64,000 nt of DNA from an uncultured Planctomycetales bacterium (GTDB lineage Bacteria; Omnitrophota; Gorgyraeia; Gygaellales; Profunditerraquicolaceae), in assembly GCA_964545575.1 (NCBI GenBank), contig CAZJFL010000001.1, positions 153,896 through 217,895 on the forward strand, read 5' to 3'. Below the pieces are notes generated by a model that ran no database searches, was not told the DNA's origin, and saw only the letters and a list, made by a program, of their open reading frames with translations. Both the position numbers and the translations under genes were made by a program. Positions 1 to 64,000 of this stretch are shown here, one piece after another. The number at the start of each line of letters is the position of its first letter. Position 1 is the stretch's first letter.

Positions 1-900
1 AGTAGCGGCTATGCGTAGCCAGGGTGAACCGTGATATAGTTGCGCCAATCTGCCTAATATATCTGATATTACAAAGCCCGCATGTGCGCTAACACCGAAA
101 TTCGAAAGTACTGCGTCCAAAAAAAGTGAAGAAATAGCGATAGGAATAATTAATGAGAAAAAGAATGCGCTAGGCTTCTTCTTAAGTAAGGGTTGGCCAT
201 AAGGAGCAAATAGGATAAAGCCAACGGAAATCAGGTAACCAACGCTCAAGGTAACGATATCCCAATAATCACCAACATAAGTCTTGGGATTCGGATAAGC
301 CTTAGCTATCTGGTTTAGTTCAGCTACTAATTGCAGCCCTAGGTGAAGCGTCATCAAAGCTATTCCTATAAGAGCTGTATCCTTGAAGACTGAATCTAAC
401 TCTTCAGAGGATTTAGACATGGCTTTAAGTAGCCTGCCTATAAGATCAAGAATAAAGAATAAAATGGCTCCAAAACCCAGAGTAATTAGCAAATCGTTAA
501 AATGTGAAGGGATTAACGGTGAGAAGGAATTAAACAAAGAATATAATTGCGTGTCTTTAGCAAAAGATCTCCAAGCAGCAAGAACTAAAATTACTATCGA
601 TATTGAATAATAAAGCCATACCTTGATGTTTACCCTGCTACTACGAAAATAGGCAGAGATTCTAATCAACCACCCCCTGGTTGTGGTAATTAAAATTAGA
701 GGTAATGGTGTCATGACAGCTGCGCTAAGGAGAGTGATTGCGGATACGATAATAACCGCCAGCCACGGCGGACCGGTGAACTGCAAGTGCTTAAGGATTT
801 CCTGTGTATGCGGGGACCCAAGCTTAAACATCGCCGATCCGGAAATGCCGATGCCCAGAAGCGGGGTTAACAATTCAAGCAGGAAGAAGCCGGATGATTT
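1..900 (-). other. Membrane region with several transmembrane helices, the most C-terminal part in the window
   Basis: Verified translation of 1-960 gives successive hydrophobic helices, for example KSSGFFLLELLTPLLGIGISGSAMF, PPWLAVIIVSAITLLSAAVMTPLPLILITTT, WLYYSIVILVLAAW, LGFGAILFFILDLIGRLL, ALIGIALMTLHLGLQLVAEL, VTLSVGYLISVGFILFAPYG and FFFSLIIPIAISSLFLDAVLSNFGVSAHAGFVISDILG. It is preceded by a Pro/Ala linker LQPPAAPVPARPK at about 905-960. Confidence 0.5.
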
Positions 901-3900
901 CTTCGGGCGAGCGGGCACAGGGGCGGCGGGCGGCTGTAAAGGTAAATCTTGATTAATCACAGAAGTAAGATATCCGCGCAATAGCCGGCAAAACGGATCA
1001 TCATCGTCTGCCTCCTGCGACTCAAAAGGATAATCTTCTTTTAAACCATAAAATCCTCCATTATCATCATACTCTTTAAACTTCTGCAGCAGACTCTCAT
1101 CGCTTGTAATATGATTATCCTCAATAAATCTTTTATTTAGTATCTGCTTAAAGCCTTCTAAGCCACCCTCTGACTTAACAACATCTTCATCGGCAAATTG
1201 ACCTATCGTTCTATCTAAAACATACCAGCGCGAATCGCCTTGTATTTTCACCTCCACACAACTATGCCTCCTTATCAAACCTGGGTTTTCTTTCTTTGAA
1301 TCGTAATAACTTACTCTGACCGCTGTAATAAAATCCTCCTTTCTGAACCTATCGCAAATAGCATCTTTCCAATCTCTGCACCATCCTCGTAGCTGACGGC
1401 CCCTTTTACCCCTAATAGGCTCTTTGCATCCAACAACTAAACATTCTCCAAGAATAAGTTTTAGGGATGGCCAGAAGGGATTTTCCTTTAGCGGCGCAAG
1501 GGCCACGAAATCATCGCTGGAACAGGATTCCCGCCCGCCGTTTGCGCCGCAGCCGGGCGCAGGGGCGCGGTTAAAACGGTCGCGTTTGACAAAAGTGCAA
1601 ATAAAGGTGAAGCTATACAATACTACCAAGCAGTAAAGCGGCAGATCGGTCAGCGCATAAAGATAGGCCAGGATAATCAAGGGGATAAAATTAAGGCGGG
1701 TGACGTACCAGATGTTTTTTAGCGGCGAGGCTTTAGGCATCTGATTAGTCCTTAAGAAATGCAGAACAAAGAAGAGCCCCCAGGCAATCACCGTGGCCAG
1801 GCGGATATCCATAAAGAAAGCTAAGGCTAAATTCAGCCCCCAGAAAATCCCTTGCTCTATCCGCGCCTGTTTTTCCAGAGGAATGCCGTGCTGCATCAGG
1901 AAATAACTTAGGGCCGGGATCATACCGGCGCCAGAATTATTATCTTGTCGCGACGCTTGCGGCTCGGGCGCAGGGGCGGCGCCCTCCTCCCGGCCGGCGG
2001 CACCGCTGCCAGGCCGCGGCGCCTGAGACTGATATTTATCAATCCTTACCGCTAAGCCTAAAACCCTACCCTCTTTATCCCTGTTAATGTTTTCTAGTAG
2101 ATGCGGATTTTTCTCAATAAATGATTCCTGTAATCTCTGGGCTTCTGGAGTATTTAAAACAGGAATATGCAGGCTAATACCGGGGATCTCCCCTATATAA
2201 AACTTTCTTACGCCTATCTTTTTCAAATAAGCAAAAACCTCATCGCGCAACAGGCTACCTATACCTTTATCCCGCCAGTCGATGCTCACATAGATGCCGT
2301 CTCCGAAGGCTACGATTGCCTCTTCTAGCGCACAAACATAAAATTGATAAGCTGCTACCGGAGTATTTTTGATAAAGGCGATTATTGCATCCTTACCTTC
2401 ATAGCCGACCTTGGACTTAAACAAGCATACCGAGGAATAACGCCCGAAGAATGTATCGCCTGCCATGCTATCTGACAAATCTTCGGGAAGTTCGCTTAAA
2501 AGATAAAATCTTAAATCCTCAATTTCATCGCTCCGGCCAGAGTCGAGCGCAGGGGCAGCGAGCAGAACGGGAGACTCAGTGTCCCTATAGAAGATTTTTT
2601 CCCAGAACCTGGGGTCAGCCTCGTAAAGAAGAAACTCTTCGTCCCTGTCCAATACAAAGACGCTTTGTCCGTGTTCATGTTTTCTGATCAGGTAATCTAT
2701 AACGCTGGCAAAGAAATCTTGTTCCTCTTTAGTGAGGGGGTCATTTTTATTGAAATACGAATCGCCAAATACATACATCGCAAACTTATCACAAAAGAGC
2801 TCTTCATCAATATCCAGTTTATAGCCGTGCTGGAGGTGTTCGTCTCCTTGATTCTTTCTCCAATCAGAAAGAAAGCCTTCTCTCTTACAAGCTGAGCCAA
2901 ACCTATGCCTTAGTCTTTGCGGTATCAATAAATAAAGCACGTATCCGACCTCATGGTAGAAGCCATGCTCTTCTATGCTGAAAAATATTTCCTCCGCATC
3001 CTTATCTTTTGGACTTAGGCCTAAAGAGTGAAAGACCGTCCATAAAGCATTTACGCCCTGATCAAAAGTAAGGTCGAGGAAGTTGATTTCTGCAAATATA
3101 CGCTTGCCCTCTGCAATATCCATCGCTGCTCTTACCATGCCTATGGGAGCCCGGTTCACATGAGCATCTTTAGTTAAATTCGCAAAATTATAAGTTAATC
3201 CTTCCTCGAATATAAACGGCAGAATACGATAAATCCTTTCTGCCCAACGCTGTATCTGTCGCGGACGGAATTGCCTGATAAAACCTGCGCGCGGGCTGTC
3301 CAAAGGCACCGGTAGGCCAGAGTGAGATTCAAATTCTCTTCTTAGCCTAACCATAAGTAAGGCCATTACTTCTTTATCCAGTCCTTGCCGAAGCAAAGAT
3401 TCCTTTACTTCTTGAAACATCAATCGCCTGATATAATCCTGGCTGCCGTATCTGGCTTGGGTGCTTTGAATATAATTCCTATCATCCGGCGTAGAAGCAG
3501 ATGATGGTTCAGCAGGGGCTATCCCTGCCCCTCGGCTTCTAATAGGTATAGCGGGGATGGTTTTAGTCTTTAAATCAAACCTTAAGTCTCCTTCTTTGGT
3601 CGGTTCAAACCCAAGCGGGATATAAAAATTTTCTGCCTTCCCCTTAGCCGGCGCCAAAATTAAAAATTCACTGTAGCCATAATGTGTTGTTAACTCTAAC
3701 GCTTGGGTAATTAAATTAGAGCCTATGCTGCGAAACTGGTATGCGCTATCTACAAAAATGCCTTCCTTGGCTATAACGCGCCCTTTACCATCGTAAGCAG
3801 TACCGACTAAAACGGTAATGCCATCATCCATCAGGGAAAAATGGAGATAGCCGATAGCCTCACCGCCATGATTAACTTCGATTATCCCAACGCTCCTATG

Positions 3901-6900
3901 CGAGCATCTATTATCGTTGATGGCGATACTCCGATAGCAAAAATCAAACTTCTCCCCGTCTTCGGAATTAATAGTCAAGCGGCCTTGCCTGGCTAAAGTT
4001 TCCCCTATAGATAAGCGGTTAGTGGCGCGACTCCCCTTGCGCTCTGCAATAACTCCCGGGCAGCCGGGCCGAGTTCTTATTTTTCTTAAAACAGCTAATA
4101 TTGTATTCCCGGTAACCGCATAAACCCACCTTGTACCATCGAGGACTTCTGCCTCGTATACGATAGCGACTAATTTTCCTTTATAGAATACTGAGGCGCC
4201 GCAAATCCCACCGTGGTTTATCTCGGTACCGGTCGTATCTATCTCCAGGATATCCCTTGAGCCGTCGCTACAGAGCACTCGGCGTGCAGGCACGGTAACT
4301 ACATCTTTATAGCAGAATCTATTTCCGCTCCTGGCCTTACTGTAACGTATGAATGGGATGACTACTTCAAATTCGCCATCAAGGGGCGGAACGCCTATCT
4401 CTAAAGAATCAAATTCGGTAAGGTAATTCGGCGCAGGCCCTGCTGGGCCCGCAGAGGGGGTATAGGAAATGCTCGAAATGTATATGACCCCGATATCTTT
4501 GCCGGACTCATCGCAACAGGCCAAGATCCTTCCCATGGCAAAAAGTTTATCTTCTGTAAATTCCGCCATGACCAGGTCTCCCGGCTTCACCCGATGCCCC
4601 ACGGTCAAGACAAAAGCCGCATCCCTGGTTGATCTGATAATCGTCCCCTGATATAAAGTACTCTGGTCTACATCCTCCAGCCCAAGGATGCGCCGTAATG
4701 ACCTGTTTCTTTCTTCGCCTGCGACAAACCCTCCGTCTCTTTCCTCTGCCACCTGCGGCTCGGGCGCAGGGGTGGCGGCAGGCGATAATTTAGGATCGGG
4801 TTTAAACGCTACAGCATCACCTATTCCCTCATAGCCTTCTTTTACCCACTTCATGCGCAGTGGGAGAATGTCGTTCTCTATCCCTTTCTTTCCTCCTTCA
4901 TGCAGGCTATATATTAATGAACGAAGGCTATCGCAAAATTCATCAAATTTCATATCGCAGGCATGATCAGTTATACAACTTAATTTTCCTTCATATTGTA
5001 ATGTAGAGAAGTCTATAAGGAGGACCTTTCCGTTTGTGGTAATGAAAATATGCCGTAGGCTAGAATCGCCGTGAAAAATATGTAGTTCGCGATTAAGGAT
5101 CCCATAGACTCTGCCGATTTCCCTGAAAAAATATCTTTCGTTTGCTAAGAACATCTTGCGGTAATATCGATTACGACGATGCTGATCATCTATAACTTCT
5201 TCGAGGGAAAGGCCATCGCTGATCTCGCGGATTAGTAAAGTGTCCGCCACAACAACGGACGGCGGCGTAATCCCTCTCCGGGAAGCCTTGAGGGTTATTT
5301 TGTATTCGAGTGCGGTGGGGTTACGACGTTTTAGATTTGATGAATGGCGTAGTTTTGCGTAGAAAGATACTGGTCCTTTTTCTGTAGTAAGGGTAAATTT
5401 AAGAACGTATCCGAATATATCTGCTCTTTCGTATAGACCTCCTGGCCCTTCTTCTCCCGCAATCTCATGGGTGCTAGCCAAGATCTTTTTTACTCCGAGG
5501 AACTTTTTAATCGCTGCTTGCTTGTAAAGTATGCATTGTACTTTCTCAGCTACAAACGGTTGCTTTTCCTCATCTACCAAAAGCATTCCAATAAACCGAC
5601 TTATCACCGGCGGAGCGCGGGGACGGCGAGCTCCAGCCATCAATAGCCCGCCGACCAAGAGGCCAAGGATAATTCCTGCCAGAATCGGATTATATATTCC
5701 GTCGGCAAATAAAACCAAAAGTACGACAACGGCAGGCAAGCGGGCAATGGTGGCAGATGAATTTGTGCTGCCGGTTTGCGGCGCCTGCGGCCGAGCAGAA
5801 TCTGTGGGCTTGGCGCGGTCAGGGGCGGCCGCAGGGGCGGCGGGATTTGACTCTGACCAAAATGCCCGTAAATAACTTATAGGAATCTCTGGGTAGCGAT
5901 CGTATAAGACCTGATATTGCTGCTTGATCTTACGCAGGCGTACAAGGTCTGTACTGTCTAAAGAATATAACCTTATTTCTTTGACGACCCTTTTCGCCTC
6001 TCGATCCTGTATTAAAGGCTCGAGTGGCCTATCGTTAAGCTTGGCGACCAGCAGTCTTTCAATAAGTTTGAGTCGGTCTAAATCCCCAAAGAAACGTTCA
6101 AACTCAAAATCTTCTTTTCCAAATAACCAGGCCCACTGCAATGTCGCTTTGATCACCTCGATATGCGCGTGGCGAGTAAAACGCACAAAAATCTCATCTA
6201 CCAGGTCTGCCTCATCTACCGCCGCCTCAAATACCTCATGCGCAAAAGTAACCGGCGTATTTACGCTACCCTTAATATAATAAATACCCGACCCCTGAAT
6301 CTCGGGGCAGGCGATAATAGCCCGGAGTTGTGCCGGTTCGAATACGCCAGCGGAATTCCTATCGCGATAATATTTAACTCTTTCCCATACCTGAGAGTTA
6401 ATGTAAATCGCCTGCGTATGCAGATTATAGTCGCCACTTATTTCTTTGGCCCCTAATCTCCTGCCTAATTCAAGCGGATTTTGATTTAGAGAAGGCGCTT
6501 CTTCCAGGCGAACGGCCTGTGCTAGCTTGCGCCAAGCAGTGGCTATGGCTTCATCTATTTCCGGACAAGAAGGAAATAGTCCTTTCCACTCTTTTATAGG
6601 CATACTCCTTCTCTTTTTTGGAACAATTGGCGCCAATACTTCCTGACTATTATCACCCATGTTAGGTAAATGAACGTGGCCCGGCGCAGGGGCGGTAGAC
6701 GGTACGGCTGGAGACTTCTCCCAAATAAAATGCCATGATCCCACAGGCTCATTCCTGAACCCTCGCTTCAGATAAAAATCAGCCATTATCTCATCGGGTT
6801 CTCGGCCACTTTCATCTTGAACAAGAAAAAGAGGAGTATTAATCAAGGTAATGCGGCTAAATTTATTTTGGCAGAATTCTATTAAGGATCCGGCTATACC

Positions 6901-9900
6901 TCTATTGCGGTATTTTGGATGGACAAAGAAATCATCGAGAGAGACTGCATGAAAATCTTTCAGTGTATATACCAGATAACCAAATACTGTTTTGATTATT
7001 GGATCGACAGCTGCAATTAAATGTGTTATGCCACTCAGTAGCTCTTGGGTTCTACTTTCCAGAATATCTAAGTCAGAGTAACCAGGATCAATTGTTAATG
7101 CCTGACCGATACCTTGTTTATCGTATACAAAAATTATCTCTGGTTTAAGTCTTTCTCTCCCTTTTGGCTCAGGGTAAACGGCCACAGGGGCGGCGGCTCG
7201 ATTTTGCTCTGGACAGGCAGGTGAAGATAATCTCTTTACAGAAACATAAGACAATATTTGTGTACCGGAACAAACATCAACCCAGTCTAGGTCTACCGGG
7301 AAACGCTCAGAGAAATCTTGCCTGCGCCAGAATCTACGCGTGTTTCCTTCATCTACGCATGTGCCGTGAAGTAAAATAATATCAAAACCGCATCTTCTTA
7401 AGTATGGCTCAATAACTCTGCTATACCAAACATAACCTACTCCTTTACCGCGTAAAGAAGAATGGATCTCAAGCTTTTTTATAACTGCCATCCAATTAAG
7501 ATTGTAATAAGACCTTACTGATTTTTGACCGCCTGCGATGCCATGTATCATGTGCTCGTGGTAAGCGCTCGCATCGTTCCATAATACATCCCGAAGAAGA
7601 TCGTTAAGTTCACAGTCACCGTAAGCGATTCCCAGGGTATTTTCTACGCAGAGAGTCAAAGAAGCTGCTTCGCATTCCTTTTCAGCGGCCTCTCCTTCCC
7701 TCTTAAATAATAAGGAAAGGCTTATTTCGCCTTCTTTATAGACGGCTACCCGCGTTTCTAATCTTCCCTTCTCGCCTGTATCATCCATTACTTTTTTGAT
7801 TTCTCGGTACGGCAAAAGGCTATCTGGAGCAATTGTCAAGTCAAACTTTGGTTTTCCGCGCGCATCCTCTATTCTATCGGCGGGCGCAGGGGCGCTGTCG
7901 TCTTGCCTGGCCATTGCCAGCTCAAAACCAACAAAGCAGCCCATTGCGCCGCCTATAGGAGGAACAGGTGCATGATAGGGTAAAGCCAGCGGCACTATGA
8001 TGGTTCCGGCATAAGGATTACGCGAATTATATATATTTCGTTTTTCCGGGTCACTAAGCACCAGATAAGCTTCGATAATCTGACGCATGATTTCTCCCAG
8101 GCGCGCATCACTCTGGCAGATATCCGGATGATAGCGTTTGGTCAATTTTAAAAATTGCCCCTTAATCTCATCCGGAGCGGCATCCTTAGTAACCCCTAAA
8201 ACCCCGTAATAATCTTTTTTGTAATCCGCCTGGACGCCTGCGAATAAATCCCGATACTCTTGTTTAAGCCGCTCGAGCCACTTCTGCAATTCCCGTAACA
8301 TATCCTCGGCCATTATCTGGTCTCTAACCGCCTGCCGTAATAAAGCAGCGCTCTGTTTATTTGAATGCCGGGCATAGATATTTAAAAATAAACCTATAAC
8401 CCCAAAGATACCTCCTAAGATACCGAATAAAAACATAATCTCTCCCAGAGACGGCGCGCCTGTGGCGCCGACGAAACTGAAGACTATAAGGGCACCAAAC
8501 ATGGCCAAGAGGATGCGCTTGGCATTTTTATAGAGCCAGATGATCGGCTTGACTACCAGCCATTTAAAGACCAAGCCCGCCAGTGCCGTTACTCCGCTTT
8601 CCAGCAAACCTCCCTTTTCTCCCACGCCGGGTATCTTATCCGTTGCGTGTGAAATTGTGCTCTTGATGATATATTGTGCCAGCTCCGGATGGTCCTTACT
8701 GATCTCTAATGGCGCAGCTGCCAGGCCAAATGTCGGGACCAAACTCCAGAAAAGAGCCAAGAAATACTTTGGCCTGAAAGCGAAGACGATTAAAGAAACC
8801 ACAAACCTGAAGGCAACATCAATCGCCTCAGGGATTAACCAGCCCCACTCCGCCTTCCCCTGAAAAATCAGCGTCTTCAGGAATGCAACCATTCCTCCGG
8901 CTCCGACGATGGGCGGATTAACCACGCCTAAGACCCCCTTGAGAATTACATGCAGGCCGAAAAGAATAATCATATCGCGGTTATCTTTTGCCTCCATTTG
9001 CCGCCTTAATGATTGCGCTTCTTTTTCATCCAGCCGCCCGCTTTTTAAATCTTCGTCTATCCATTTATTGATGAGCTTTTTGGCGTAGACCAGGATCTTA
9101 TCGGGAATGGTCCTAACCCAGCGGAATATAGTAACGAATTGGTGAAATAATGCTTTTATCTTCCCGGTAAATAGATAAATCAAGGCCTGCTTCAAATGAT
9201 ACAGGGTTTGTTTGAAGGCGTAGTGAAAAGGAATGCATAGCGCCCTGACTTTAACATCAATATAGTCGCATAATTGCCAGAAAAGATTTAATAAATGCCG
9301 GGGTAAACTTTTTAAGGTCCTAAAGAGATACTCCCAATCAAAATGCAACGGTTCGCTTTCCCGCCACATTTTCAGGTAATACACCAGCCTCTGGAAATCC
9401 TCTTCTCTGCCAAGTTCGAGATGGCTGTCCACGTAACGCTTCAGCCGCTTAAGCGCTACTAAATCAGCAAAGACCGGCGAGCGACGGTTCAGTAAACCGA
9501 TGACCCAATATTTTATCTCCCACGGAGTCGCCACCACCGAACCCACTAAATCCATTATCCTGAAATCCCCTCCGGCGGTTTTTACGATATTGGCGAGGCT
9601 GTTCAGGTTAGCGCTATCTATCTGGCGGCCGATGCCGATAAAACCTAATTCTCTGACTAAGAAATCATAAAAATCAGCCGCCCTGTGCCTGAACTCGCTG
9701 ATATCAGAGAAACTATGCCGAACGATGCGGCACCCCTCCAGAAGCTGAAATGCCTGGGCATAGCAGCCGGCTTGGCTGTCATAATAAGTAAAAAGTAATT
9801 CCGGCGTTATATTTGCGCCAAATTCCTGCCTGAAGGCGCGGACAATAATCCTGTTGGAGAAATGGTTAGCCAATACTGCCCAGAGATTATTTTCATAGGA

Positions 9901-12900
9901 ATAGGGGTATCCCCGCCAGAGCCGGAACCAGAACCTGACCAAGGCAATGGCTATCTTCTTGGCGGTAGTCTTGGGCCAGATATGATAATATTTCACCGCA
10001 AAAGTCCGGTCGGCGGTTATATCTTTGGCCTTATATACCGTACCGGAAAGGCCCGCGCCCAGTTCGCCCAGTATCTGGATGGTAATGTTACCGGCTCCGT
10101 AAGTCCGGATGTCCTTGACATCTCCTGTTTTCGGCTCTACGCTGCTCACTTTTCTTCGGTCTAATGGCGTAACTACGTCAATAATCTCGGTGCTAAAATC
10201 TGAAGCAATCCCCGGTACCACTGGTTCACTTCTATCATCCGCAGATAACCGGTAGTCATAATGCAGGCCGAAGAAACGCATCACGGAAAACAGCAATAAG
10301 GCCGGGATATAGAATACGGCCGATTCGGCAAATTCATAGACTGCACCCCAGGGGTAGAAGCGGCTGCGCTTTAATAATTCATCACAAAAGTACGCATACC
10401 ACTTCAAATGCCCCTTAAGGTACGGTTCTTTTTTATAGCCGTTCTCGGCAAAGAATTTTAGACTGAAGGCGCGCCGGACAATCAAGTATTTTGTAATTTG
10501 TCTAGAGATAGTTATATTTGGCGTAAGATAAATCGTCCTGCTGACGGGGATATCTTTGCCTCCGAAAATAGCAACCATCGTGTAATCTGCGCTTAGCCGG
10601 ACATCCTCAGCCAGCGCAAGCGCCGCAAGCAATTCTCTATCGCCTGACTTCTCTGCCTGTTGCTTTAGTTCAACGCGGACTTCCCTGATACGTTCTTCAG
10701 GGCTCTTTTTTAAATATTGCGTCAATCTTAAAAATGCCGGAAGGTCCGTAAACGGGAAGTAGCCGATTAAAGGCAAAGCGGAAATAAAGACTAGAGTGCC
10801 AAACACGACCATACTCATAATGCGCAATGGTGCGGGGGTACATAAAATAAGGGCAATGAGCGCGAGGGGGATTAAATTGAGGCCTACGGCAACAAGGATT
10901 TTTCTCGCCCAGTCCGGCTTCGAATTCTTGCCCTGCCATCCAGAACCATCCCTGAGGGCGGATTTTGTTTTAGCTAAAACGATAAAGGCAGAATTGATTT
11001 CCTCAACAGTCAACCTGCTCAGGTCTTTTAATACCATATGCGCGCCAAAACTACGCAATGTCTCTATATCCCCTAAGCCGATAACCAAACCAAAATTACC
11101 GGATATTCCGGCCTTAATATCAGCATCGGCATCACCGATAACTATGGCCTGTTCAGGGGCAACGCCCATTCTTTTGGCAGCAAGCAGAAACATCTCCGGG
11201 TCAGGCTTGCCTCGCTGGACATCCCTACTTGTGATTACCACATCGAAGTTATTCTTTAGGCCAATCTTCTCTAAGATTTCCGGTGTAGCATCAGAGCCAG
11301 AACCAACCACCAGCCTAATCCCTGCCTCGCGCAGCCGGCTTATTAGCGCAAACGTTCCCTGGATTTTATTAACGCCTCTTAACTCTAGTAGCTGCATATA
11401 ATATTTCTGCCGCTCTTGAGCCATCAGTAAAACCTGAGCATCAGCCAATCCGGGAAACATCATCTCTATAGAAGTAGTTTCTTTCCTACCGTTAAGCCGC
11501 TCTTGAAAATATTGCATAGTTACTTCCGGGCCGCGGTGGGCCTCAGAGAGCATCCGCCAAGCCTGGAAATGCTCCTGAACGGTATCGATGATCACGCCAT
11601 CACAGTCAAAAATTACGGCCTTAAAGGAACTGTTCGGGGATAACCCTTCAGGGGACGCTTCTCCGATTGGCACAGGGCCTGGTCCTGCTTTGGCGCGAGA
11701 ACTGTCCCTGAAGAAAGTAAAGAGCCCGTAGGCCAGCGCTAAGAAAACTAAGGCAAAGAAGATAAAGTACGGTATCGCCGGGCGCGTAATCAAAGCGGCT
11801 AAATCTCGAGCGATAAATTGCCAGGTGCCGCTCTGAGTAAGAGTAATTTTAAAAACAGTAAAATAAGGCCATAATTTCAGCATTAAGGAATCAGAAACCA
11901 GCAACCAGCCGAAAACAAAAGCGCACAAAACCGCTGCCGCCGCAAAAGCATAGTAGGTAGGCTTACGCTGGGATTTAAAAACGGTTTGAACCATTCCGCG
12001 CAGTTCATTAAAGCGGGCAAGGAATTCGCCGCAGAAACCTTGATATTTGCGATGTAGCGGCTCATGGTAATCTCGGATGGAAATCTGGAATATTTTCGGC
12101 AGGTATTGGAACGCGGGATGTTGTCCTTCGGGCGTAGCAATATAAGTAGTTAACGCAGGCGGGCCTTTAATCAAACCGGCTTTTTTGGCATAGATCCGGA
12201 ATGCCCGCAGCACAAATAAGCCCTTTACTACAAAAACCAGACCGGCCAAAGCAACTAATACTGTCAGACCTAAACAGATTTTTCCTAACTGGGGGACGCT
12301 GTATACGAAGCCGGCCGCCACCAGAAAAGCAATGAAGGCAAATCCGAAATCCTCCAGCGCAGCGGATTTAGCACTTGCCGCTTTTAACCGCCATGGTCTT
12401 AGGATAAGAGCCCCTCTGCTTTTTTTCTGAATAATCATTTTAACTGCTGAAGAAATATCTATTGGCTTGCCACTCTTCTTGATTGCCTTATTTATCGCGG
12501 CAGAGGTCCAGCCATAACTGATAATCCGGCAGGCATCCCTATACTTTATTCTGGCTTCATCTAAAGCCGCCAAGCCGGCTTTTAATCTTCCCGTAAAAAC
12601 CTTAAACGCCTTACTGCCCAGCCAATCTGTATTATTGTATTTTATACGTTGCCTGTCAGGACGCGAAATTAAACCGTTCTCAACATACTTCTGGCGAAAA
12701 TAAGCTGCTTTATTTAGCTCTTTTACCCTGCGCTGGCCCGCAACATTAGCTACCACGGTTAGATTATCAATAATCTGCTGCGCTAATGTTTTAGGCAACC
12801 TCTCGGCTCTCAACGCCCGATAGAACTTCTTTCTAAATTCTGCTTCTGCTTTTTGTTTTAAAGAAAATCTTCTACTCCTAATCGTGCTTTCGCGGAAAAG

Positions 12901-48900: not shown

Positions 48901-51900
48901 GCAGCGCCTTCTTTCTATCCTATAGGCAAGATACCTAAAATATCCCGCCAGCTCAGCAGAAGGGAGCTTATCCAAATCTATGCTATCAATAAAAGCTTTT
49001 ACTTGTGTTAAAAAGGTATCAGGAGCAGTAACCCAGTCAAGGCAAGAAACAAATTGCCTGATTGCCTCTGAAAACGCCTCCCAGCTGCCGTTTGCGCCTT
49101 TATTCTTTCCCTTCCCTTTAGGCAGTTGCTCCCATAACCTTTTGATGATATCAAATATCTGCGGGTAGCTAATCCGGGCGAGGGCTGCCGGACAAAGCTT
49201 TATTACTCTGAGCCCCTTATCAAAATTACCCGTCTTTAAATAGGCACGAAGTAAATCCTCACCTAGGCAGGGATCATTCACTCCGGAAACTAAAATCTCA
49301 TTTAAATATCCCTCGGCTGCTTTAATCTCTCCCTTCTCTAATAAATAGGCGGCAAGCTCCAATCTAAACGCTATTCCTTTATCCGAGGTCAACTTTAAAC
49401 CGGTTTTTAACATTGTTAAGGCTAAATCTACTTTGCCTGCCGCACGATAAGCCCTGCCGGCGGTAAAAAGAAGTTCCGAGGCCGCTCTTTTTTGGAATGT
49501 TTTCGTGAGGTCGGCCATATTTTTGACTTCTCCGAAAGCAACCACAGCCAGGGCTAAAGATTCATCTGCCATTTCTTTCAACCCGGCGGTTTGCCCTTGC
49601 TGCAGGCGAATCTCCGTTATATCCCGGATCACCTCTGCTTTCAGGATAAGTAGTGAGGAATTTTCTTCCTCTTCAATCGCCTTATCCATTAATGGCAACG
49701 CTGATTCTAATAGCTGAAGCGCTTCTGTCAGCCGGCCGTGGGATTGATGCAGCGCTGCCAGAGAGCGCATTCCCTCGACCTGGAGATCTTCGCCGGCTTC
49801 TGCTAAAGCATCTTCAGCAAGAAGCCTTATGGCTTCCGCTTCATTGCCGAGCGCAGCGCAACAAATCCCCAGAGTCACGGTAATAATGGAATGGGGCACC
49901 TCTTCTTGCGCGGCAACTATCGCCTTACGCAAAGCATCTGCTGCCTGCTGATACTGGCGCCGGCGCAGAAAGTACATCCCTAAGCAAAAATATGCCTGCT
50001 CCATAACCTTAGCCCTTTCCTGCTCATAATAACGGCGCGCCTGATCTTTAGCGTCTGCGGGAATTATTAAGGGCGTCTCTTGCGCCTTTAAGACATATCT
50101 TTCTGTTTCCGGATAAAAAATAACCCCGTCTGACACTGCTTTTTCATACCAATAGTGGGCAATGCGTTTATAAGCAGAAGCGAGAAAATTAGGCGTGATG
50201 TACTTGCGGGCCTTCTCAGCATTAAGTTCCAAAAAGGTAACTACTTTCTTAAGATAGCCGATGGCTTTGTCGTAATCACCGAGATTGTAATAACAATGGC
50301 CGAGATTATAATTGCACATTGCCAGCAACGCAGAAACGTAGGTACTTTGCCGGAACTTTCCGGCTAGATTCTCTACCTCGGTCAGATACTTTATTGCCTC
50401 CTGAATTTCACCCAAATCAAGGCATGTCCCGCCTAAATTAAGGTAGGCGCGCATCCTCTTTGCATCATCGGTAAGCAGGCCGAGAAGCTCTAACAACGCC
50501 GCCTTTTCTCCCTGGCGATCCTCAACAGAAAGGCAGGAGGCGGCTTGAGCAAAGAGCTCTTGAATTCTATCCTTTGTCCCCAGCTCCTTAGCAAGCTCCC
50601 CCTTAAGAGTCGTAATCAGTTTGGTTAATTTGTTAGGATAGGCCACGCGGGGCTTTGCTGCCAGCTCTACTTGATTTAATAAATCTTCGGCAACCTGATA
50701 GTTTATTCCCGCAGCAGAAAAGGCTTTCACTAATACTAACTGAAAGACCATTAAAGCCATCTCGTCTCCTGTGTTAACTTTTGCTACCATAATGCCTGCT
50801 ATCGGCTGGAGTTGCTTTTGCTGAATCATAGCGGTGTATTCTTCTACAGTCAGTATCGCCTGCTGTCTCAATAGACTCCTCAGCGCATCTTTTCCTGCTC
50901 CTGATAGGCCTAACATAATCAGCAAACCGGTAATAGAATTATGGCCTATCCCAAGAAACGCTCCGATAAGAATTAATCCTGCCATCTGCGGCTGGGCGCG
51001 GATAAAACTCTCTAAACACTTTACAAAAGTCTTTAATAACTTAGCAAGAATACCCCAGAGGTATACTATTAATCCATAGCTCCATTGACGCACACTAAAC
51101 ATATTGCATACAAGAGCGCCGAGGAACAGGCCGACAGCAGCACCAATACCCGGCAGGCCCCACGCCATATAAGCAATCACTGCGCCGGTAAAAGCTAGGG
51201 CAATCGGAACGCGCATATTCGCTGTAGCATCGTTGATACTTGCGCGCTTCATTACTACCCCGGTTTTCGAATGTAATAATTTCTCTCTTTGCTCTCCGCT
51301 AAGGTCACGAAAGAGTATATGAGGCATAGTACAAAAGTTGAGATAGAGAGATAAGGGCGAGCCGGCAAAAGCAGGACCATAAATAATTAGGCCTTGCAAG
51401 AAAGGTGTTGGTTTCTCGGTATTTGGCTGTAGTTGTTTTCTTGCCGCATCAACTATATCCTTCGCCGCTGGATTTTCGGAATCTACAAGCAGCACATAAG
51501 GATAATCAATCTTCCTGGAAGTTAAATCTTCTGCATTTGTTAGCTCAATAACCCGGAATCCTTTTTGCGGCTGGGCAATCGCTGCCGTAGCTACGGCAGG
51601 CTGAGCTTCTTTTTGAGTGGGCGGCGCTGTTTCTACTCTGGCCTGCGAAACCTCCACTTCGACCTGCTGGGGCGCGGCTAATCCCTCTTTGATCCTGCTG
51701 ATAAGACTAGCTAGTCTGACGGGAGTGGCTTTTAGTCCGCTATTTTCTCGCGCTGCCTCTCTTTCTATATAATCAAGTATCGTAATTTTATCGGCATAAC
51801 GCATCCAGGTAGCTGTAAAGTTAACTGTATTAAAAGCTATTATCAAATTACGTATAAACCGCGCGGTATCTGGACAGTTGGGGCAATTGGCTACATTAAT

Positions 51901-57900: not shown

Positions 57901-60900
57901 AGACAATATCGCTCTCACGCCCATCTTTTCACCCGCGCCCGGAACAACGCCGGCGGGCTCAACTTGTGTATTTCTTTTAACCAGTTGCAAAACCTGAGGC
58001 ACAAAATCCTTAGGCAGTTGGCCTTCGTATCTGCGTAAGGCCTCCTCAATTACGCCTATCTTGACATCCGGGTCTTTCTTTAGTATAGAAACGAGGATTC
58101 TGCTTACATCGCGCGGATAGGGAAGGCGCGAATTATCAGCGGCACAAATCTCAAAAATAGTTTCCACGACTAGCATTCCTCTTTTTTTGCCTCCCATTTC
58201 AGATAAAGCGTCTGCTGCGGGATCACTCCAATTGCATTCATTAGCCCAAGGGCCGCGATAAGAACTCCACAACTCTTTAGCTGCCTGCTTAACCAGCGCA
58301 TCAGCCCCCGGTATTCTCGCTACTACCTGCGCCAGAGCAGGTATTATCCGAACAAGACAAATATTATTCCAACCTTCCTGAGGATTTACAAAAGCGCCTG
58401 CGCGCCATAACGTTAAAGCCTCAAAATATGCCTCGACTGCTCTCTCGCCCCCTATTTTAGCTAAGGCCTTAACTGCTGCCTCTTTAACCGCGGTTTCCAG
58501 GCCTCTTACCGGGTTGCGGCATAAAAAGTATTTCAATCTACTCACCGCTCTTTCATCCCCTATATTACCAAGCGAAGAAATTGCCGCAGGGATAAGCAGC
58601 CGCTTATCTTGCTCTCTCTTTAAAAAGCCTAACCAAAAATCAAGCAGCGCTGGATCGCGCATATTAGCCAAAGCATCTGCTGCTTGCAAATAGGCTTCAG
58701 GCAGGCTTGTCCCAAGCTTCAAGCCTCGTCTCACTATTTCAATTAAAGAATCAGCTACTGGCGCCCCGATTTTACTTAAAGCCTCTGCCGCAGCCTTTGA
58801 TAATCCATCCCTGATATCAGCCTTAGAATCATCCTTTAGCTCAAGCATATTCTTCTTTAAAGCCTCCAATAAATCTTCCTTTGCTTCCATAGCACGCAGT
58901 TCTCCCAGCGCCTTGGCGCTGGCAACAAAAGCATCCAGGCCTTTATGAGCCAAAGCATAATTACTATTGTGCATACTCTCATTCAGGCTAAATTTCAAGC
59001 ATTCCAGCAAAGTATTGATTATTCTTTCTCTTATTACCAGCCTTATTTTAGCCAGCGTAACAAATTTCGGAATGACTGCGCTATCTACAGTCCGCACAGG
59101 CTCCTGGCGTAAGGGAGACGAATCGTGCTGCACGTACAAGGCAAAGAAAAGGCAGCTAAATCTATAAAGTGCATCCGCCTTAAAATGATCCCCAACCAGA
59201 TGCTCAATTGCTTCGTGGATCAATATTTCTCCTAAATCGGGCTGTTTATCCGGCGCCTGGAGGAGGCTGTAGAAATCATGGCTGATGCAGAAGACAACCT
59301 TAAGGAGACCTTCTATTTCTAATTCAACTAAACCTGAACGATAATCTACTCCTAAATCCACTACCCAGACTTGATCGATACGCTCAGGCAGGGCGAGCTG
59401 ACCTTGCGGACCAATCACTTCCCCGCAGATCCTCTTTAGCATAGGCCCGGCTGCCTCAAATTCTTTATTAATCATCTCTCCTAAGGCCGAAGTAACATCC
59501 TGTTGTTTCTCTGTGCCGATTGTCTCTTTGATAGCGGCGATAAATTCATCCCTGGTGCCGGGAAACGCACCATTATGGCCCTGACAAGGAGCAGAGGGGC
59601 CAGCTGGCGTCCGGCGGCTGGGGTCGGCGGCGGGCAATGAGGAAACGTTCAAGCTCCTCGCCATAGGAAAGATGAAGTCAAAGAAACTATCATCCGGGCA
59701 CCCATCATTAAGCTGCCTTGTTGTCCCGAAAAATCCTAGTTTTTTCCAGAACCTGCTCGTCTGCGCAATATTATTACATGTCCCCCAGAAAACAACGACT
59801 TGGAAACCGCATCGCCTGAAGTAAGGCGCAAGGTGATCCTCAAACCATAGCCTACCGATACCTTTGCGCCTTATTCTTTCATCAAGCCGATAATAAGTAA
59901 TCAAGGGTATCCACTTTAAATTATGATATGTGATTATCCACATCCTTCCCGGCCTGACAGCCGTACGTACGCTCTTTGGTGTCCAAAGCAAATCTTTTAT
60001 TTCTTTGCCATACCATTCAAGTGGCTGAGCATCCTCTTGCCCAACACCATCGATTTCTAATTTGTTTGTAGCATCCACCTCTACTTCAGCTATTTTTCCA
60101 CTTGATCCCCTCCGTCTAACTGTTATATAAGCTTTACGCTGTTCAGTAATTTCAGCCTCTACTTTAAGCTGTTTTATCCCCACGCCCAAGGCCCGGGCGA
60201 TTTCCTTAAGAGGAGCTAAGCTTTCCAGGGGAATTGCGCTATTAAAAGTAATCCTCTCGGAAGAACGTAACTCTAACGCCGTAACAAAATGGGACCAGCC
60301 GCCGCAAAATAACATCTTATCCATAATTACCTGTGTCATCTCCGGCCGCTGCAAAGCGCAATCTGCCAGAGGAACTAATGCCTCATCGAGACGCCTCTTA
60401 AATTCAGTTATCTCGGACGCATAACGCCTTTCATGGTCAGACTCTCGGTTATGGCTACACAAAAATTCAGAATACTCCCAACTTCTTTCACGATAAACAG
60501 CGATCAGGGCATCGACATCAACCACTGCGGCGACTGGCTGCCGACCGGCGCGGGCAGGGCCGCTGTAAGCCTCCACCACCTCTGCTACTGTTTCTTCCCT
60601 GGGTTTCGCAATATAAAATTTCTGCCTGAGGTCAAATTTTAAAGTCGCTGCCAATGCCGCGGCTCTTGTGTGGGCAGCGCTACCTTCAAGGCCTTCCTCG
60701 ACCCTGGCTAAGAAATGTCCTATTTCATGCTTTAATATTTTTTCGCTCCCCCCTTTTTCGACGACAACAGAAAATACGTACTTTTCAGACGACCGCCACA
60801 TTCTGTAACTATCTTTCACCAGCACCCCGCCGCCCCACCTGCTTAAGCGGCCTGGTGAAAATTCATAGACTCGAATTTGATAGCTATCCTTCTGCCCTTT

Positions 60901-63900
60901 TATTTGGATAATCTTAACATCACACGGCACATTCTGTTTTAAGTCCACGGCATCACCCGGATTGACCTTATTGTTATAGGCACCAAGCACCTGGCCGCGG
61001 CCGGGGCCGGCTGGCGGCTGGCTGCTTGAGCCGGTGCCTGACAAGACGAGGCCGGTGTTGCGCGCCAGGAGAGCGGCGGAGATTTGATATTCATTAAGTG
61101 TATAGCCTCTATCCGAGAATGTGCCGTTAAAGGTAAACCCTAACTTTCTATGCAAGCTATTAGTCGCCAGATTGTCTGCTAAGGTTAATATCACTAACGT
61201 CGGCTCACTGCTATGATCAAGCAAGAAATAGCGCGGGCCCTGTTGCGCATAATCAAAAGGCAGGACCAATTCTATGCCGTTGGCCTCGCAATATTCTTTA
61301 ACCTCCCTGAATATCGCCAGGTATTTAGCCAGGTCTTTCTCTTTGGGCATCAGGGATTTTCCCATATCTTGCCCGAAGAAATGTAAGCCGACATTGGCTA
61401 ATGCGCCGATAATAAATACTTTATCGCCGGGCTGTAATCTATTCTTGACGATTTCCAGAATCCCGTCGTATTTATCGAACTTTGCGCCGCCAAAAATCGC
61501 CACCCACGGATGCTTAGCGCTCTTTTCGAAGGCGCTGATTTTAGCCATCTCGGCCTGCGTATATTCTCCTGTCCTGCGGTTTCCCGCGGCAAAAAGATTG
61601 ATCATTTCTATCGATGCTTCTTTGGGGCGATGCCATTTATCCACTGCCTCAAAAACATAATATTTTGCCCCGGTCAGCTCGATGATTCTCTCGGCAAAGG
61701 CCTTTCTCTCGGCGGCATCTTTGGATTTCTCCTGCCGATAGAATCTGACATTTTCAAAGATAAAGATTGCCTTGGGATATTGGCGCCTGGTTTCGGCAAT
61801 CTGCTTTTGGGCGTTATCCAGGTCAAAATCTAAAAGCACGACCGGAATATCTATACCTTCTGCGGCAAGAATCTCTTTTAATCTGGCTGCTACCGGCTTA
61901 AGGCTGTATTTTTCTTCAAAGCCTTCTCCTTTGGGCCGGCCCATATGCGTCATCACAAAAAGGTAATCAAGTTCTCCCAGCGATTTCTTTATCGTTGGGA
62001 CGGCCTGCCGGATTCGCTGATCGTCTCGGATGGCGCCTCCTTTATCCAGAGAAACATTAAAATCTGCTGCCAGGATCGCCGCCTTCTCCGGCGTATTCCG
62101 CTTACCCGCCACCGCTGCAACGCCCATCGAAACCGCTTTCGCCAAACCTAAAATAAAAACGGGCAGGATAAAACTGAAATCTAAATGCGCAGCCGGCGCT
62201 GGTGCCTGATTTGCGGCAAATAATAAATTGGGCAATAAGAGAATTGTGCCGATAACAAAAGGCAGGATGGATTTCAGATACCGGCTTGCCTCAAGGCCTT
62301 TGCCTGCCGGCGCTAATTCCTCTTTCCTAGCTTCTGCCAATTCATTTTTCCGGGCTTCTACCAACAGACGGAACTTAGCCAATAAAAGTTCCAGGTGCGG
62401 AATCGAAGAGTCTACCTTGTGCTCCACCTTGCGTTGCCCGGCCTCATAATCGTCTGTAATTACCTCTTGCTCTTCTTGCTTCTCTTGCTCCTCCTCCATA
62501 AGCTGCCAGAAGAGCCTCGCTGGCCACTCTGCTATAATCTTTTCTTCGCGGTAATAGAGGCAATAGCCGATGAACTTCCTGATTTCTGCGGCGTACAGGC
62601 TGAATCCCCGCGCATCAAAATATCCTTCGGTAAGGATAAACTTCAGCCAGGCCGCCTCCAGGTAAGTGAGCTCTAAATCATATCCTACTTCTTTTAAAGA
62701 AAAGTTAACCCCTGTCCCGGCGCAGAATATCTCCACGGCCTTTTCCGCGTAGGGCTCAAATAAACCGCGCAGCTTCGCTACAAAATCCTGCCAGATTACC
62801 AACGCCGGAGCAGCAACCAATCTTTCTTCATCCGCTATATAAGCCCCGGCAGGATTAAAATAATAATTAAGCAAATGCTTTGCATTCTGATAGATGCGGG
62901 CAAAGGAATCTCTTCTTAAAGTAGAAAACTCGGCATCGCACCTATTTGCCTGCGCCAGCGCCCGGTGCATTGTTTTCTCAATCCGCCGGTAAAGTTCTCC
63001 GGTTAAACGGTGCGAGATTTTATCTTCCGTAACATAAGCCAAGAAAACCTTTACGCCTTCTAAATCCAAACAATACGGCTCCCTGCCTACGGCTGTTGCC
63101 ACTGCCTGTTTTACCAAATTCGGATGTTTTATTGCGCCGCCTGCATCCAGCGCTTTTATGCCGCAGAGAATAGCGGCAATAAATCTTCTCTCGTGATCGT
63201 AAAGCTTGGCATTGATTGCCTGCTGTTCCGGGTTAGCCTGATTTGCTTCCTGCTCAAGCTCCGCCAGCGCTGCCACTGCTGCCTCATATTTAAGCCGGTC
63301 TTGCCTGTCCGTTCCTACTGCCGCCGCAATAAACCCGCCCATCGAAAGCGCTTCCGCGGCAGCTAAAATAAAAAGAGGCCAGAATAACAGATTATGGCGG
63401 CTGGCTTCGCTGCGCCTGCCTTTAAACAAAGGATACAGCGCTACTAATAATAAAATTCCGATAAGCGCAACCGACAGCACCCAATCATAAGAAAACAACT
63501 TGGATAAAAGCATGGCCAGTTGCGCAAAAGGATCTACCTTAGGAACCGGATATATAAGCCCTGCGTAAGCCGGCAAAACAAATATAGGTAACAGCATTCC
63601 GGCAGCGATTGCCCCGGCGCCCGGGCGGGCGGCTTTCTTTTTTCGAAGAGAGGGACGCCTCAGAAAAGAAAGCATGCGTATGCCGCTTATTCCGTCAGCG
63701 TCTAAAGTCCAATCTTTTCCCGGGTCAAATCCCAGAGACTCGAAGAAATTCTGCGCCCGCTCTTTTGCCAACCTGCTATCTTTTGTCTCGCCGGCAGATA
63801 AGGGGTTGGCTTTTAAAAACCAAGCATCCTTAAGGTATCCTTCAGCTTGCGCCAATAATAAATACACAAAAGCCCTACCTAAGCCCAAACCATGGTTTCC

Positions 63901-64000: not shown

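Follow-up and report, generated by a model that had tools for sequence, protein, structure and literature searches.

The window analysed here is a stretch of 64,000 nucleotides (nt) from contig CAZJFL010000001.1 (assembly GCA_964545575.1), and practically all of it is taken up by one open reading frame (ORF) on the minus strand. A six-frame stop count found 0 stops in the 21,333 codons of this frame (window 1-63999), whereas each of the other five contains 689-1,531; even with stops as sparse as in the poorest of those five (~3.2% per codon), the probability of a frame with zero stops is ~e^-689. Because stop codons of every type are missing from the frame, the ORF call is independent of the genetic code. 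The ORF is open at both window ends; the gene therefore measures at least 64 kb, and the window covers an inner part of it. For the same reason (the giant ORF exits the window at both ends), a listing of ORFs of at least 150 amino acids (aa) returns just three. These three are on the plus strand (10796-11401, 52199-52708 and 57167-57676), are the sole antisense ORFs of that length and have no Pfam match; we treated them as chance.

We cut the encoded protein into 30 overlapping pieces of 1,000 aa, compared the pieces with Pfam at E<=0.01 and then at E<=1, and cross-checked the results by sequence searches of the PDB and by NCBIfam (Table 1). Significant matches to differing families extend from aa 635 to aa 20,602, all in the same minus-strand frame. 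At least 12 distinct domain types are represented, the most frequent being GNAT with five copies (including two that are inferred), and the matches cover ~13% of the residues, leaving ~87% without a match (an estimate from match coordinates). A first-pass annotation, made from the letters of the window, had proposed that many normally separate enzyme-type domains are joined in one frame, and had named separate genes between the domains, with stops, as the finding that would speak against it. The joined domains are confirmed, and no stop codon was found between them. The long linkers and membrane helices that it placed between the domains are also seen, at the level of crude hydropathy scans: these give 51-60 hydrophobic stretches of ~19 aa or more, mostly clustered (ahead of the PGK-like module, the TPR region and the J-domain, around the HAD module, and on the C-terminal side of the window).

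The frame is homogeneous in composition. Its three codon positions have GC contents of 0.54/0.38/0.48, and the protein has an ordinary amino-acid composition (rich in L, A, E and R). In all sixteen 4-kb bins the GC content is 44-49% and the GC skew has the same sign. Relative synonymous codon usage gives pairwise correlations of 0.74-0.88 among eight segments of 2,666 codons, and a correlation of 0.88 between codons in Pfam domains and all others. This uniformity of codon usage, GC and GC skew indicates a native gene, not a patchwork of genes from different sources. Dispersed DNA repeats in the window belong to one family only and tandem repeats are trivial; the giant protein is a non-repetitive mosaic. 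One in-frame tandem repeat that encodes ARQEA (15-nt period, ~6 copies) lies at window 21389-21478 on the minus strand (aa ~14187-14203).

Other explanations for so long a frame were considered. No plasmid, phage or vector match was found for the window, which rules out a phage, plasmid or vector origin. Neither Rfam families nor tRNAs were found in the window, and embedded RNAs or introns are ruled out, none having been detected there. A megasynthase of the non-ribosomal peptide synthetase or polyketide synthase (NRPS/PKS) type is ruled out as well, since such domains are not among the window matches.

Table 1. Features of the giant ORF in the order of the encoded protein (window coordinates; E-values unless stated otherwise)
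Feature	Protein position (aa)	Window coordinates	Strand	Evidence
Continuous ORF, 21,333 codons, open at both window ends		1..63999	-	stop count, codon-position GC, all Pfam matches in frame
~6 hydrophobic transmembrane-like helices	124-632	62104..63630	-	hydropathy scans
PGK-like module	635-928	61216..62097	-	PF00162 4.6e-45; PDB PGK residues ~12-286
GNAT-like module a	1334-1470	59590..60000	-	28% identity, 1.6e-17, to aa 18802-18940; PF00583 E=0.096
HEAT repeats	1734-1862	58414..58800	-	HEAT_2 1e-8, HEAT_PBS 9.5e-8; PDB alphaRep/HEAT chains
TPR region, preceded by transmembrane cluster (aa 4264-4433)	~4475-4875	49375..50577	-	TPR_2 3.6e-17, TPR_12, TPR_16, others; PDB, NCBIfam
HExxE-x5-H domain copy 1	5933-6125	45625..46203	-	41% identity, 3e-38, to copy 2
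GT4 glycosyltransferase module, complete	8943-9369	35893..37173	-	PF00534 5.7e-35; BLAST vs stand-alone GT4s
ARMT1/DUF89 damage-control-phosphatase-like module	9479-9745	34765..35565	-	PF01937 1.3e-33, profile 47-295 of 311; PDB 1xfi, 2g8l
Repeat copy c1	10387-10496	32512..32841	-	T/I-rich hydrophobic helix, then FGPILPRLLEGVMLARDYLLACLRSA, then GCS
M48 metallopeptidase-like fragment	11019-11080	30760..30942	-	PF01435 1e-6, profile 27-87 of 186; HELQH intact
UbiB/ABC1-type atypical kinase module	12210-12577	26269..27372	-	PF03109 ABC1 1e-12, APH 1e-5; UbiB model positions 52-403 of 436
Repeat copy c2	12624-12733	25801..26130	-	one difference from c1 in first 150 nt
HExxE-x5-H domain copy 2	12965-13330	24010..25107	-	alignment: H135, E136, E139, H145 and E152 invariant
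Weak sigma-54-DBD-like/wHTH/sigma-70-r4-like region	13340-13900	22300..23982	-	Sigma54_DBD 1.8e-4; wHTH-PRTase_assc 6.9e-6; Sigma70_r4_2 0.099; below/near cut-offs
Second winged-helix-like region	14970-15125	18625..19092	-	HVO_A0261_N 3e-5, MarR_2 7e-4, HTH_45 1.4e-3; below gathering cut-offs
Repeat copy c3	16340-16449	14653..14982	-	more diverged
HAD-IIB (S6PP/Hydrolase_3) C-terminal fragment	16624-16690	13930..14130	-	PF08282/PF05116; S6PP 9.7e-6, 25.8 bits vs 20.3; Hydrolase_3 23.2 vs 20.9
Beta-phosphoglucomutase-type HAD-IA module, complete	17458-17671	10987..11628	-	PF00702/PF13419 5.7e-28; PDB bPGM chains residues 1-214
~5-7 hydrophobic helices directly upstream of J-domain	18343-18544	8368..8973	-	hydropathy scans
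J-domain	18594-18660	8020..8220	-	PF00226 2e-17, profile 1-63 of 63; PDB; HPD intact
GNAT-like module b, paralogue of module a	18802-18940	7180..7596	-	internal paralogy
GNAT module c	18994-19083	6751..7020	-	Acetyltransf_7 1.1e-9; Acetyltransf_1 2e-8
GNAT module d	20035-20135	3595..3897	-	Acetyltransf_1 1.4e-7
GNAT module e, marginal	20535-20602	2194..2397	-	Acetyltransf_1 7.3e-4, 20.2 bits vs cut-off 20.7
~9-11 hydrophobic helices, C-terminal side of window	20765-21305	85..1707	-	hydropathy scans

Nine of the 12 Pfam families that had been predicted were recovered (PGK, DnaJ, GT1/GT4, two HAD types, GNAT, ABC1/UbiB, ARMT1/DUF89 and M48), and three gave no match at E<=1 in the 30 pieces: PF04542 (sigma-70 region 2), PF02390 (TrmB methyltransferase) and PF01841 (transglutaminase). 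The sigma-70 region 2-like and TrmB-like methyltransferase modules of the first-pass annotation therefore have to be dropped. The signals nearest to sigma-70 are a weak Sigma70_r4_2/extracytoplasmic function (ECF) match (E ~0.1) and the Sigma54_DBD match (DBD, DNA-binding domain), and the Pfam match named 'TrmB' is the winged helix-turn-helix (wHTH) regulator PF01978 (E=0.011), not the methyltransferase. The TPR and HEAT repeats were recovered, as were the five GNATs (three as Pfam matches, two through internal paralogy and a weak match). Among the three kinase-like modules proposed, the ABC1/UbiB-APH module is significant, but the second candidate reaches Pkinase at E=0.14 only. The winged helix is present as wHTH-like matches, which with the sigma-54-DBD-like ones span aa 13340-13875 and 14972-15121 and are all below or near the Pfam cut-offs; and of the two HAD phosphatases the beta-phosphoglucomutase type is complete, while the HAD-IIB type was found as a C-terminal fragment only (just profile positions 145-219). 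The weak matches to DNA-binding folds (sigma-54 DBD, wHTH/MarR-like and sigma-70 r4/ECF) lie within a membrane-threaded giant protein.

The modules differ in how much of their families they retain. The GT4 module can be aligned with P0001, a stand-alone GT4 of 436 aa, over residues 18-435 of the latter (39% identity); its identity to stand-alone GT4s is 34-40% over the full length and 40-48% in the best local segment, and an E-x7-E motif can be read by eye in the printed sequence. The stand-alone GT4s closest to it sit in ordinary Wzy/Wzx-type surface-polysaccharide clusters. The beta-phosphoglucomutase-type HAD module has intact DxD and GDxxxD motifs and transmembrane helices on both flanks, and scores 142 bits in its NCBIfam subfamily (cut-off 153). 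Of DnaJ only the 63-residue J-domain is matched (the G/F region, the zinc finger and the C-terminal substrate-binding domains are unmatched), so that the module is a lone J module, not DnaJ. The GT4, the beta-phosphoglucomutase-type and ARMT1-type phosphatases, the UbiB/ABC1-type kinase, the J-domain and the GNATs are complete modules, and the N-terminal two-thirds of PGK, the M48 fragment and the HAD-IIB fragment are truncated ones.

The PGK-like module spans profile positions 8-263 of 379, the last ~115 positions being missing, and it has the motifs of the 3-phosphoglycerate site (RI..PTI, HMGRPKG, NVRF and GGAKF). It stops at about PGK residue 286 and is followed by unrelated sequence after aa 928, so the nucleotide-binding end is missing; by its profile coverage and equivalog score, the module is not a full two-domain PGK with a C-terminal nucleotide-binding region. 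Its end adjoins a short stretch that resembles the C-terminal motif of GNATs, ATNSLHRKLGFTF (aa 635-990 for both together, window 61216-62097 down to ~61030, minus strand), and the boundary looks like a junction of two truncated domains. The first-pass annotation had left the conservation of catalytic residues to be checked; the HPD, DxD, GDxxxD and HELQH motifs are intact.

None of the matches reaches an NCBIfam equivalog cut-off: PGK/TIM scores 138 bits (cut-off 883), DnaJ 62 bits (377), UbiB 43 bits (488), beta-phosphoglucomutase (bPGM) 121.5 bits (189) and damage-control phosphatase 63 bits (440). With this, the truncated PGK and the missing sigma-70 and TrmB methyltransferase modules, the description of the gene as a housekeeping proteome in one polypeptide is overstated. 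The modules are best described as family-level enzyme relatives, some complete and some degenerate, and not as housekeeping orthologues.

The sole dispersed DNA repeat of the window is a ~246-nt sequence on the minus strand (window 14674-14919, 25822-26067 and 32533-32778), which belongs to a module of ~110 aa present in three copies (c1, c2 and c3). Each copy consists of a T/I-rich hydrophobic helix, then FGPILPRLLEGVMLARDYLLACLRSAQGPP, then GCS. The three copies share 57-75% protein identity (~73% over the conserved core) and have unrelated flanks. Copies c1 and c2 differ at one position in the first 150 nt and diverge thereafter, and c3 carries synonymous as well as non-synonymous changes; the near-identity of c1 and c2 over these 150 nt points to recent gene conversion. 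The module also occurs in an unrelated metagenome fragment (P0130, from JGI), with ~70% identity and behind an HD-associated domain, and nothing was found for it in the metagenome contig collection. A scan for recurrent short motifs at module borders that could serve as cleavage sites brought up the three-copy module and the ARQEA tandem, and no others.

A second domain is present in two copies and is characterized by an invariant HExxE-x5-H motif with an invariant E further downstream. It has ~100 relatives, many of which are ~360 aa long and aligned over their full length, with others inside proteins of two to five thousand aa; the ~360-aa relatives (L001-L010) come from Patescibacteria and DPANN genomes. 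Its AlphaFold2 model is confident, with a predicted local distance difference test score (pLDDT) of 81, and no Pfam or NCBIfam family, PDB sequence or PDB fold matches it. A single-sequence AlphaFold model of an unannotated 1,000-aa piece (aa 2201-3200) was uninformative (pLDDT 41.5). The ORF also contains five HExxH motifs: HEIGH at aa 1091, HEFGH at 7896, HELVH at 10678, HELQH at 11060 and HEPLH at 17312. HELQH falls within the M48-like match. The other four (HEIGH, window 60715-60729; HEFGH, 40300-40314; HELVH, 31954-31968; HEPLH, 12052-12066; all minus strand) are outside recognised peptidase families, and two of the four are directly behind a hydrophobic helix.

A full HMMER search with aa 12597-13796 against 1.84 billion representative proteins gave 106 matches, which have one module in common with the giant gene and nothing more (a word-indexed search of the HExxE region found no relatives, though the full HMMER search did). 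A region of ~500 aa shows 27-36% identity to several metagenome proteins. The longest relative that turned up for this region has 4,610 aa (P0126), and a complete relative has 3,765 aa (P0121). P0126 has clear sigma-70 r2/r4 domains beside its HExxE domain. A search of 5.8 billion proteins gave no homologue for one unannotated piece of 1,000 aa, and the N-terminal 600 aa of the window have no matching locus in the genome or metagenome contig collections.

The window lacks marker genes. Omnitrophota account for four of the five nearest relatives that carry a name, which is suggestive of, not proof of, membership of the giant gene in this phylum. Two are the only named relatives among the top matches of the GT4 module (P0020 and P0049, both Candidatus (Ca.) Omnitrophica) and two are Ca. 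Omnitrophota relatives of the region aa 12597-13796 (P0143 and P0155). P0143 comprises 2,126 aa, the C-terminal portion of an ORF that runs off the end of its contig (L015:1-6398; Omnitrophota metagenome-assembled genome GCA_028715425.1, contig JAQURW010000080.1), and probably is another large or giant gene cut by assembly; downstream of it are an ABC transporter, rpsB, tsf and a gene of the amino-acid-kinase family.

The first-pass annotation held that such an architecture had not been described. Giant multi-enzyme ORFs of 20-147 thousand aa are in fact known in Omnitrophota, bacteria of ultra-small size with a symbiotic or predatory life, and the giant multi-enzyme transmembrane architecture is already described there, as three reports show. 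Giant ORFs of more than 20 kb occur in many Omnitrophota, among them one of 39,678 aa with 42 transmembrane helices in Ca. Velamenicoccus archaeovorus LiM (Seymour 2023, PMC10066038). ORFs of up to 85,804 aa with many transmembrane regions were reported by West-Roberts 2023 (10.1101/2023.11.21.568195), including an 'Archaeovorin' type with HEAT, GT, TPR, GNAT, HAD_2, peptidase and glycolysis-type enzyme domains. Nielsen & Lui 2026 (10.64898/2026.06.07.730766) catalogued 916 long proteins of up to 147,155 aa, of which 94% are membrane-targeted and most are sequence-unique, and defined a class of 'multi-enzyme metabolic cluster' with recurrent GNAT, HAD, GT1 and HEAT/TPR. In the literature on giant ORFs, 46% of giants are 'TM-only' and are read as membrane-anchored with cytoplasmic domains.

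The window ORF exceeds the 20 kb of Seymour and, by crude hydropathy, shares the helix-rich chain of Omnitrophota giants; the definition of West-Roberts is an ORF of more than 90 kb (more than 30,000 aa), and the ORF, which leaves the window on either side, has a visible length of 63,999 nt. From the Archaeovorin domain set we found GT4, the M48 fragment, HEAT, TPR, GNAT and HAD in the part of the gene that is visible. Archaeovorin resembles our gene in its huge ORF, its many helices, its HEAT/TPR/GT1/GNAT/HAD_2/peptidase and central-sugar-metabolism domains in a mostly unannotated chain, and the strong divergence of its domains from stand-alone homologues. The window differs in having no SecA_DEAD, NUDIX, methyltransferase, glycoside-hydrolase or SLT domain. 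A divergent SecA_DEAD/SecA preprotein-binding domain is found in most full-length giants; the 30 pieces, which represent part of the gene, gave no match at E<=1 to SecA families, nor any to methyltransferase, glycoside hydrolase or NUDIX. Conversely, its PGK-like, J-domain, ARMT1 and UbiB-type modules are not found in the available parts of these descriptions, and may be new additions to the giant-protein repertoire.

Class 1 of the long proteins of Gorgyraeia (10.64898/2026.06.07.730766), with many distinct Pfam families and no dominance of one family by copy number, also fits the window. Likenesses are the varied Pfam tiling (GNAT PF00583, HAD PF13419, GT1 PF00534 and HEAT/TPR), the richness in transmembrane helices, the few repeats at the nucleotide level and the mostly unique sequence; the starch synthase, PGM/PMM, histidine-kinase ATPase, receiver and radical-SAM domains that dominate in that description, however, are not found in the window. 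Two further systems were compared. Large surface or membrane proteins of Patescibacteria (candidate phyla radiation, CPR) and DPANN also belong to episymbiotic ultra-small organisms, in which relatives of the HExxE-x5-H domain occur, but their ORFs are far shorter and the long relatives have a single module in common with the giant gene. MARTX toxins and viral or eukaryotic polyproteins likewise combine many unrelated catalytic modules in one translation product, but the window has dozens of hydrophobic helices and no translocation repeats, autoprocessing cysteine-protease domain or regular cleavage motifs.

It is likely that the window lies wholly inside one native giant gene on the minus strand, of the kind catalogued in Omnitrophota ('Archaeovorin' or 'multi-enzyme'), the product of which may have the role of a platform. 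The GT4, GNAT, kinase, HAD and J modules would need nucleotide-sugars, acetyl-CoA, ATP, sugar phosphates and DnaK, and could together form a platform anchored in the membrane, where modification with sugars, sugar phosphates and acyl groups would serve the cell envelope or the site at which a host-dependent cell makes contact. DnaK, recruited by the membrane-proximal J-domain, may fold or hold a chain of this size. Module insertion and intragenic recombination would enlarge the mosaic, as suggested by the ~110-aa module, which is present three times, with two copies nearly identical in their first 150 nt.

Several observations weigh against this reading. The count of helices between cofactor-dependent modules is inconsistent in parity, and the hydropathy method is too unreliable for inside/outside placement; in one report, a 'metabolic' giant was reassigned to the extracytoplasmic side by DeepTMHMM (10.64898/2026.06.07.730766). 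SecA_DEAD, the N-terminal C39/S8 peptidase, NUDIX, methyltransferases and glycoside hydrolases, features of most full-length giants of West-Roberts, are unseen in the window. The taxonomy rests on a handful of named distant relatives. A close module relative (P0122, a partial protein on a 2.6-kb contig) is labelled Patescibacteria group, and the ~360-aa form of the HExxE-x5-H domain turned up in Patescibacteria/DPANN, not in Omnitrophota. A rather unlikely possibility is that the gene is from a lineage beyond Omnitrophota, such as a Patescibacteria-like episymbiont.

Among the rival explanations, a processed polyprotein, in which the protein's own metallopeptidase-like modules cut the chain into separate membrane-anchored or soluble enzymes and the repeated module is a punctuation, docking or cleavage element, seems unlikely. 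In its favour are the five HExxH motifs with the one in the M48-like match, the two HExxE-x5-H domains, and the conservation of the ~110-aa module, both in its three places between unrelated flanks and in a separate metagenome fragment; self-cleavage by C39/S8 domains has also been raised as a possibility for giants (10.1101/2023.11.21.568195). But the M48 match spans just 60 residues, the solved peptidases include none detectably related to the HExxE domain, module borders share no recurrent short motif outside the three-copy module, and the near-identity of c1 and c2 is equally explained by recent gene conversion. We regard as similarly doubtful a membrane-tethered 'assembly line' that would be matured by its own metallopeptidase-like modules, with the helix-plus-FGPILPRLLEG...LRSAQGPP module as punctuation (anchor, docking or cleavage) and the J-domain recruiting DnaK for folding.

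A secreted or injected multi-effector toxin like MARTX, whose modules act in the cytoplasm of prey or host, is quite improbable. ATP, acetyl-CoA and Hsp70 occur there too, so the cofactor needs of the modules fit any cytoplasm, the prey's included; giant-protein peptides of V. archaeovorus are reported to rise in cells attached to larger cells (PMC10066038), and secretion and pilus genes flank other giants (West-Roberts 2023, 10.1101/2023.11.21.568195; Nielsen & Lui 2026, 10.64898/2026.06.07.730766). The ~50 hydrophobic helices along the chain, however, argue for permanent membrane embedding, and the window has no RTX or other translocation repeats, autoprocessing cysteine-protease domain or signal peptide. 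Least probable by far is that the frame arose through chimeric assembly or synthetic concatenation, or is a decaying ORF without function, as might be suspected from the 1,000-aa piece without a homologue and from the truncated PGK, M48 and HAD-IIB modules. Scarcity of homologues is the norm for giants, 80% of whose clusters are singletons (10.64898/2026.06.07.730766), and zero stops in 21,333 codons neither arise by chance nor persist without selection. The codon usage, GC and GC skew are homogeneous over the segments, and the codon usage also between domain and non-domain codons; vector, plasmid and phage matches are absent; and single modules have natural relatives with 35-70% identity in independent metagenomes. 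An artefact or synthetic concatenation, which the first-pass annotation had asked to exclude, is for practical purposes effectively excluded. Self-processing, prey delivery and artefact are none of them favoured by the present data.

The gene overturns nothing; its general architecture is already in the literature. Were the gene from a lineage outside Omnitrophota, ORFs of more than 20,000 aa would be extended to a new phylum; were the assembly-line reading true, the repeated module would mark off the functional units within one giant translation product. Few coding sequences are as poorly understood as giant bacterial genes, each of which is nearly sequence-unique. To these the window adds a 21,333-aa stretch in which complete and degenerate enzyme modules can be distinguished, module types that are absent from the available parts of giant-protein descriptions (a PGK N-domain, an ARMT1 phosphatase, a UbiB-type kinase and a membrane-proximal J-domain), and a giant gene that carries a direct trace of intragenic gene conversion.

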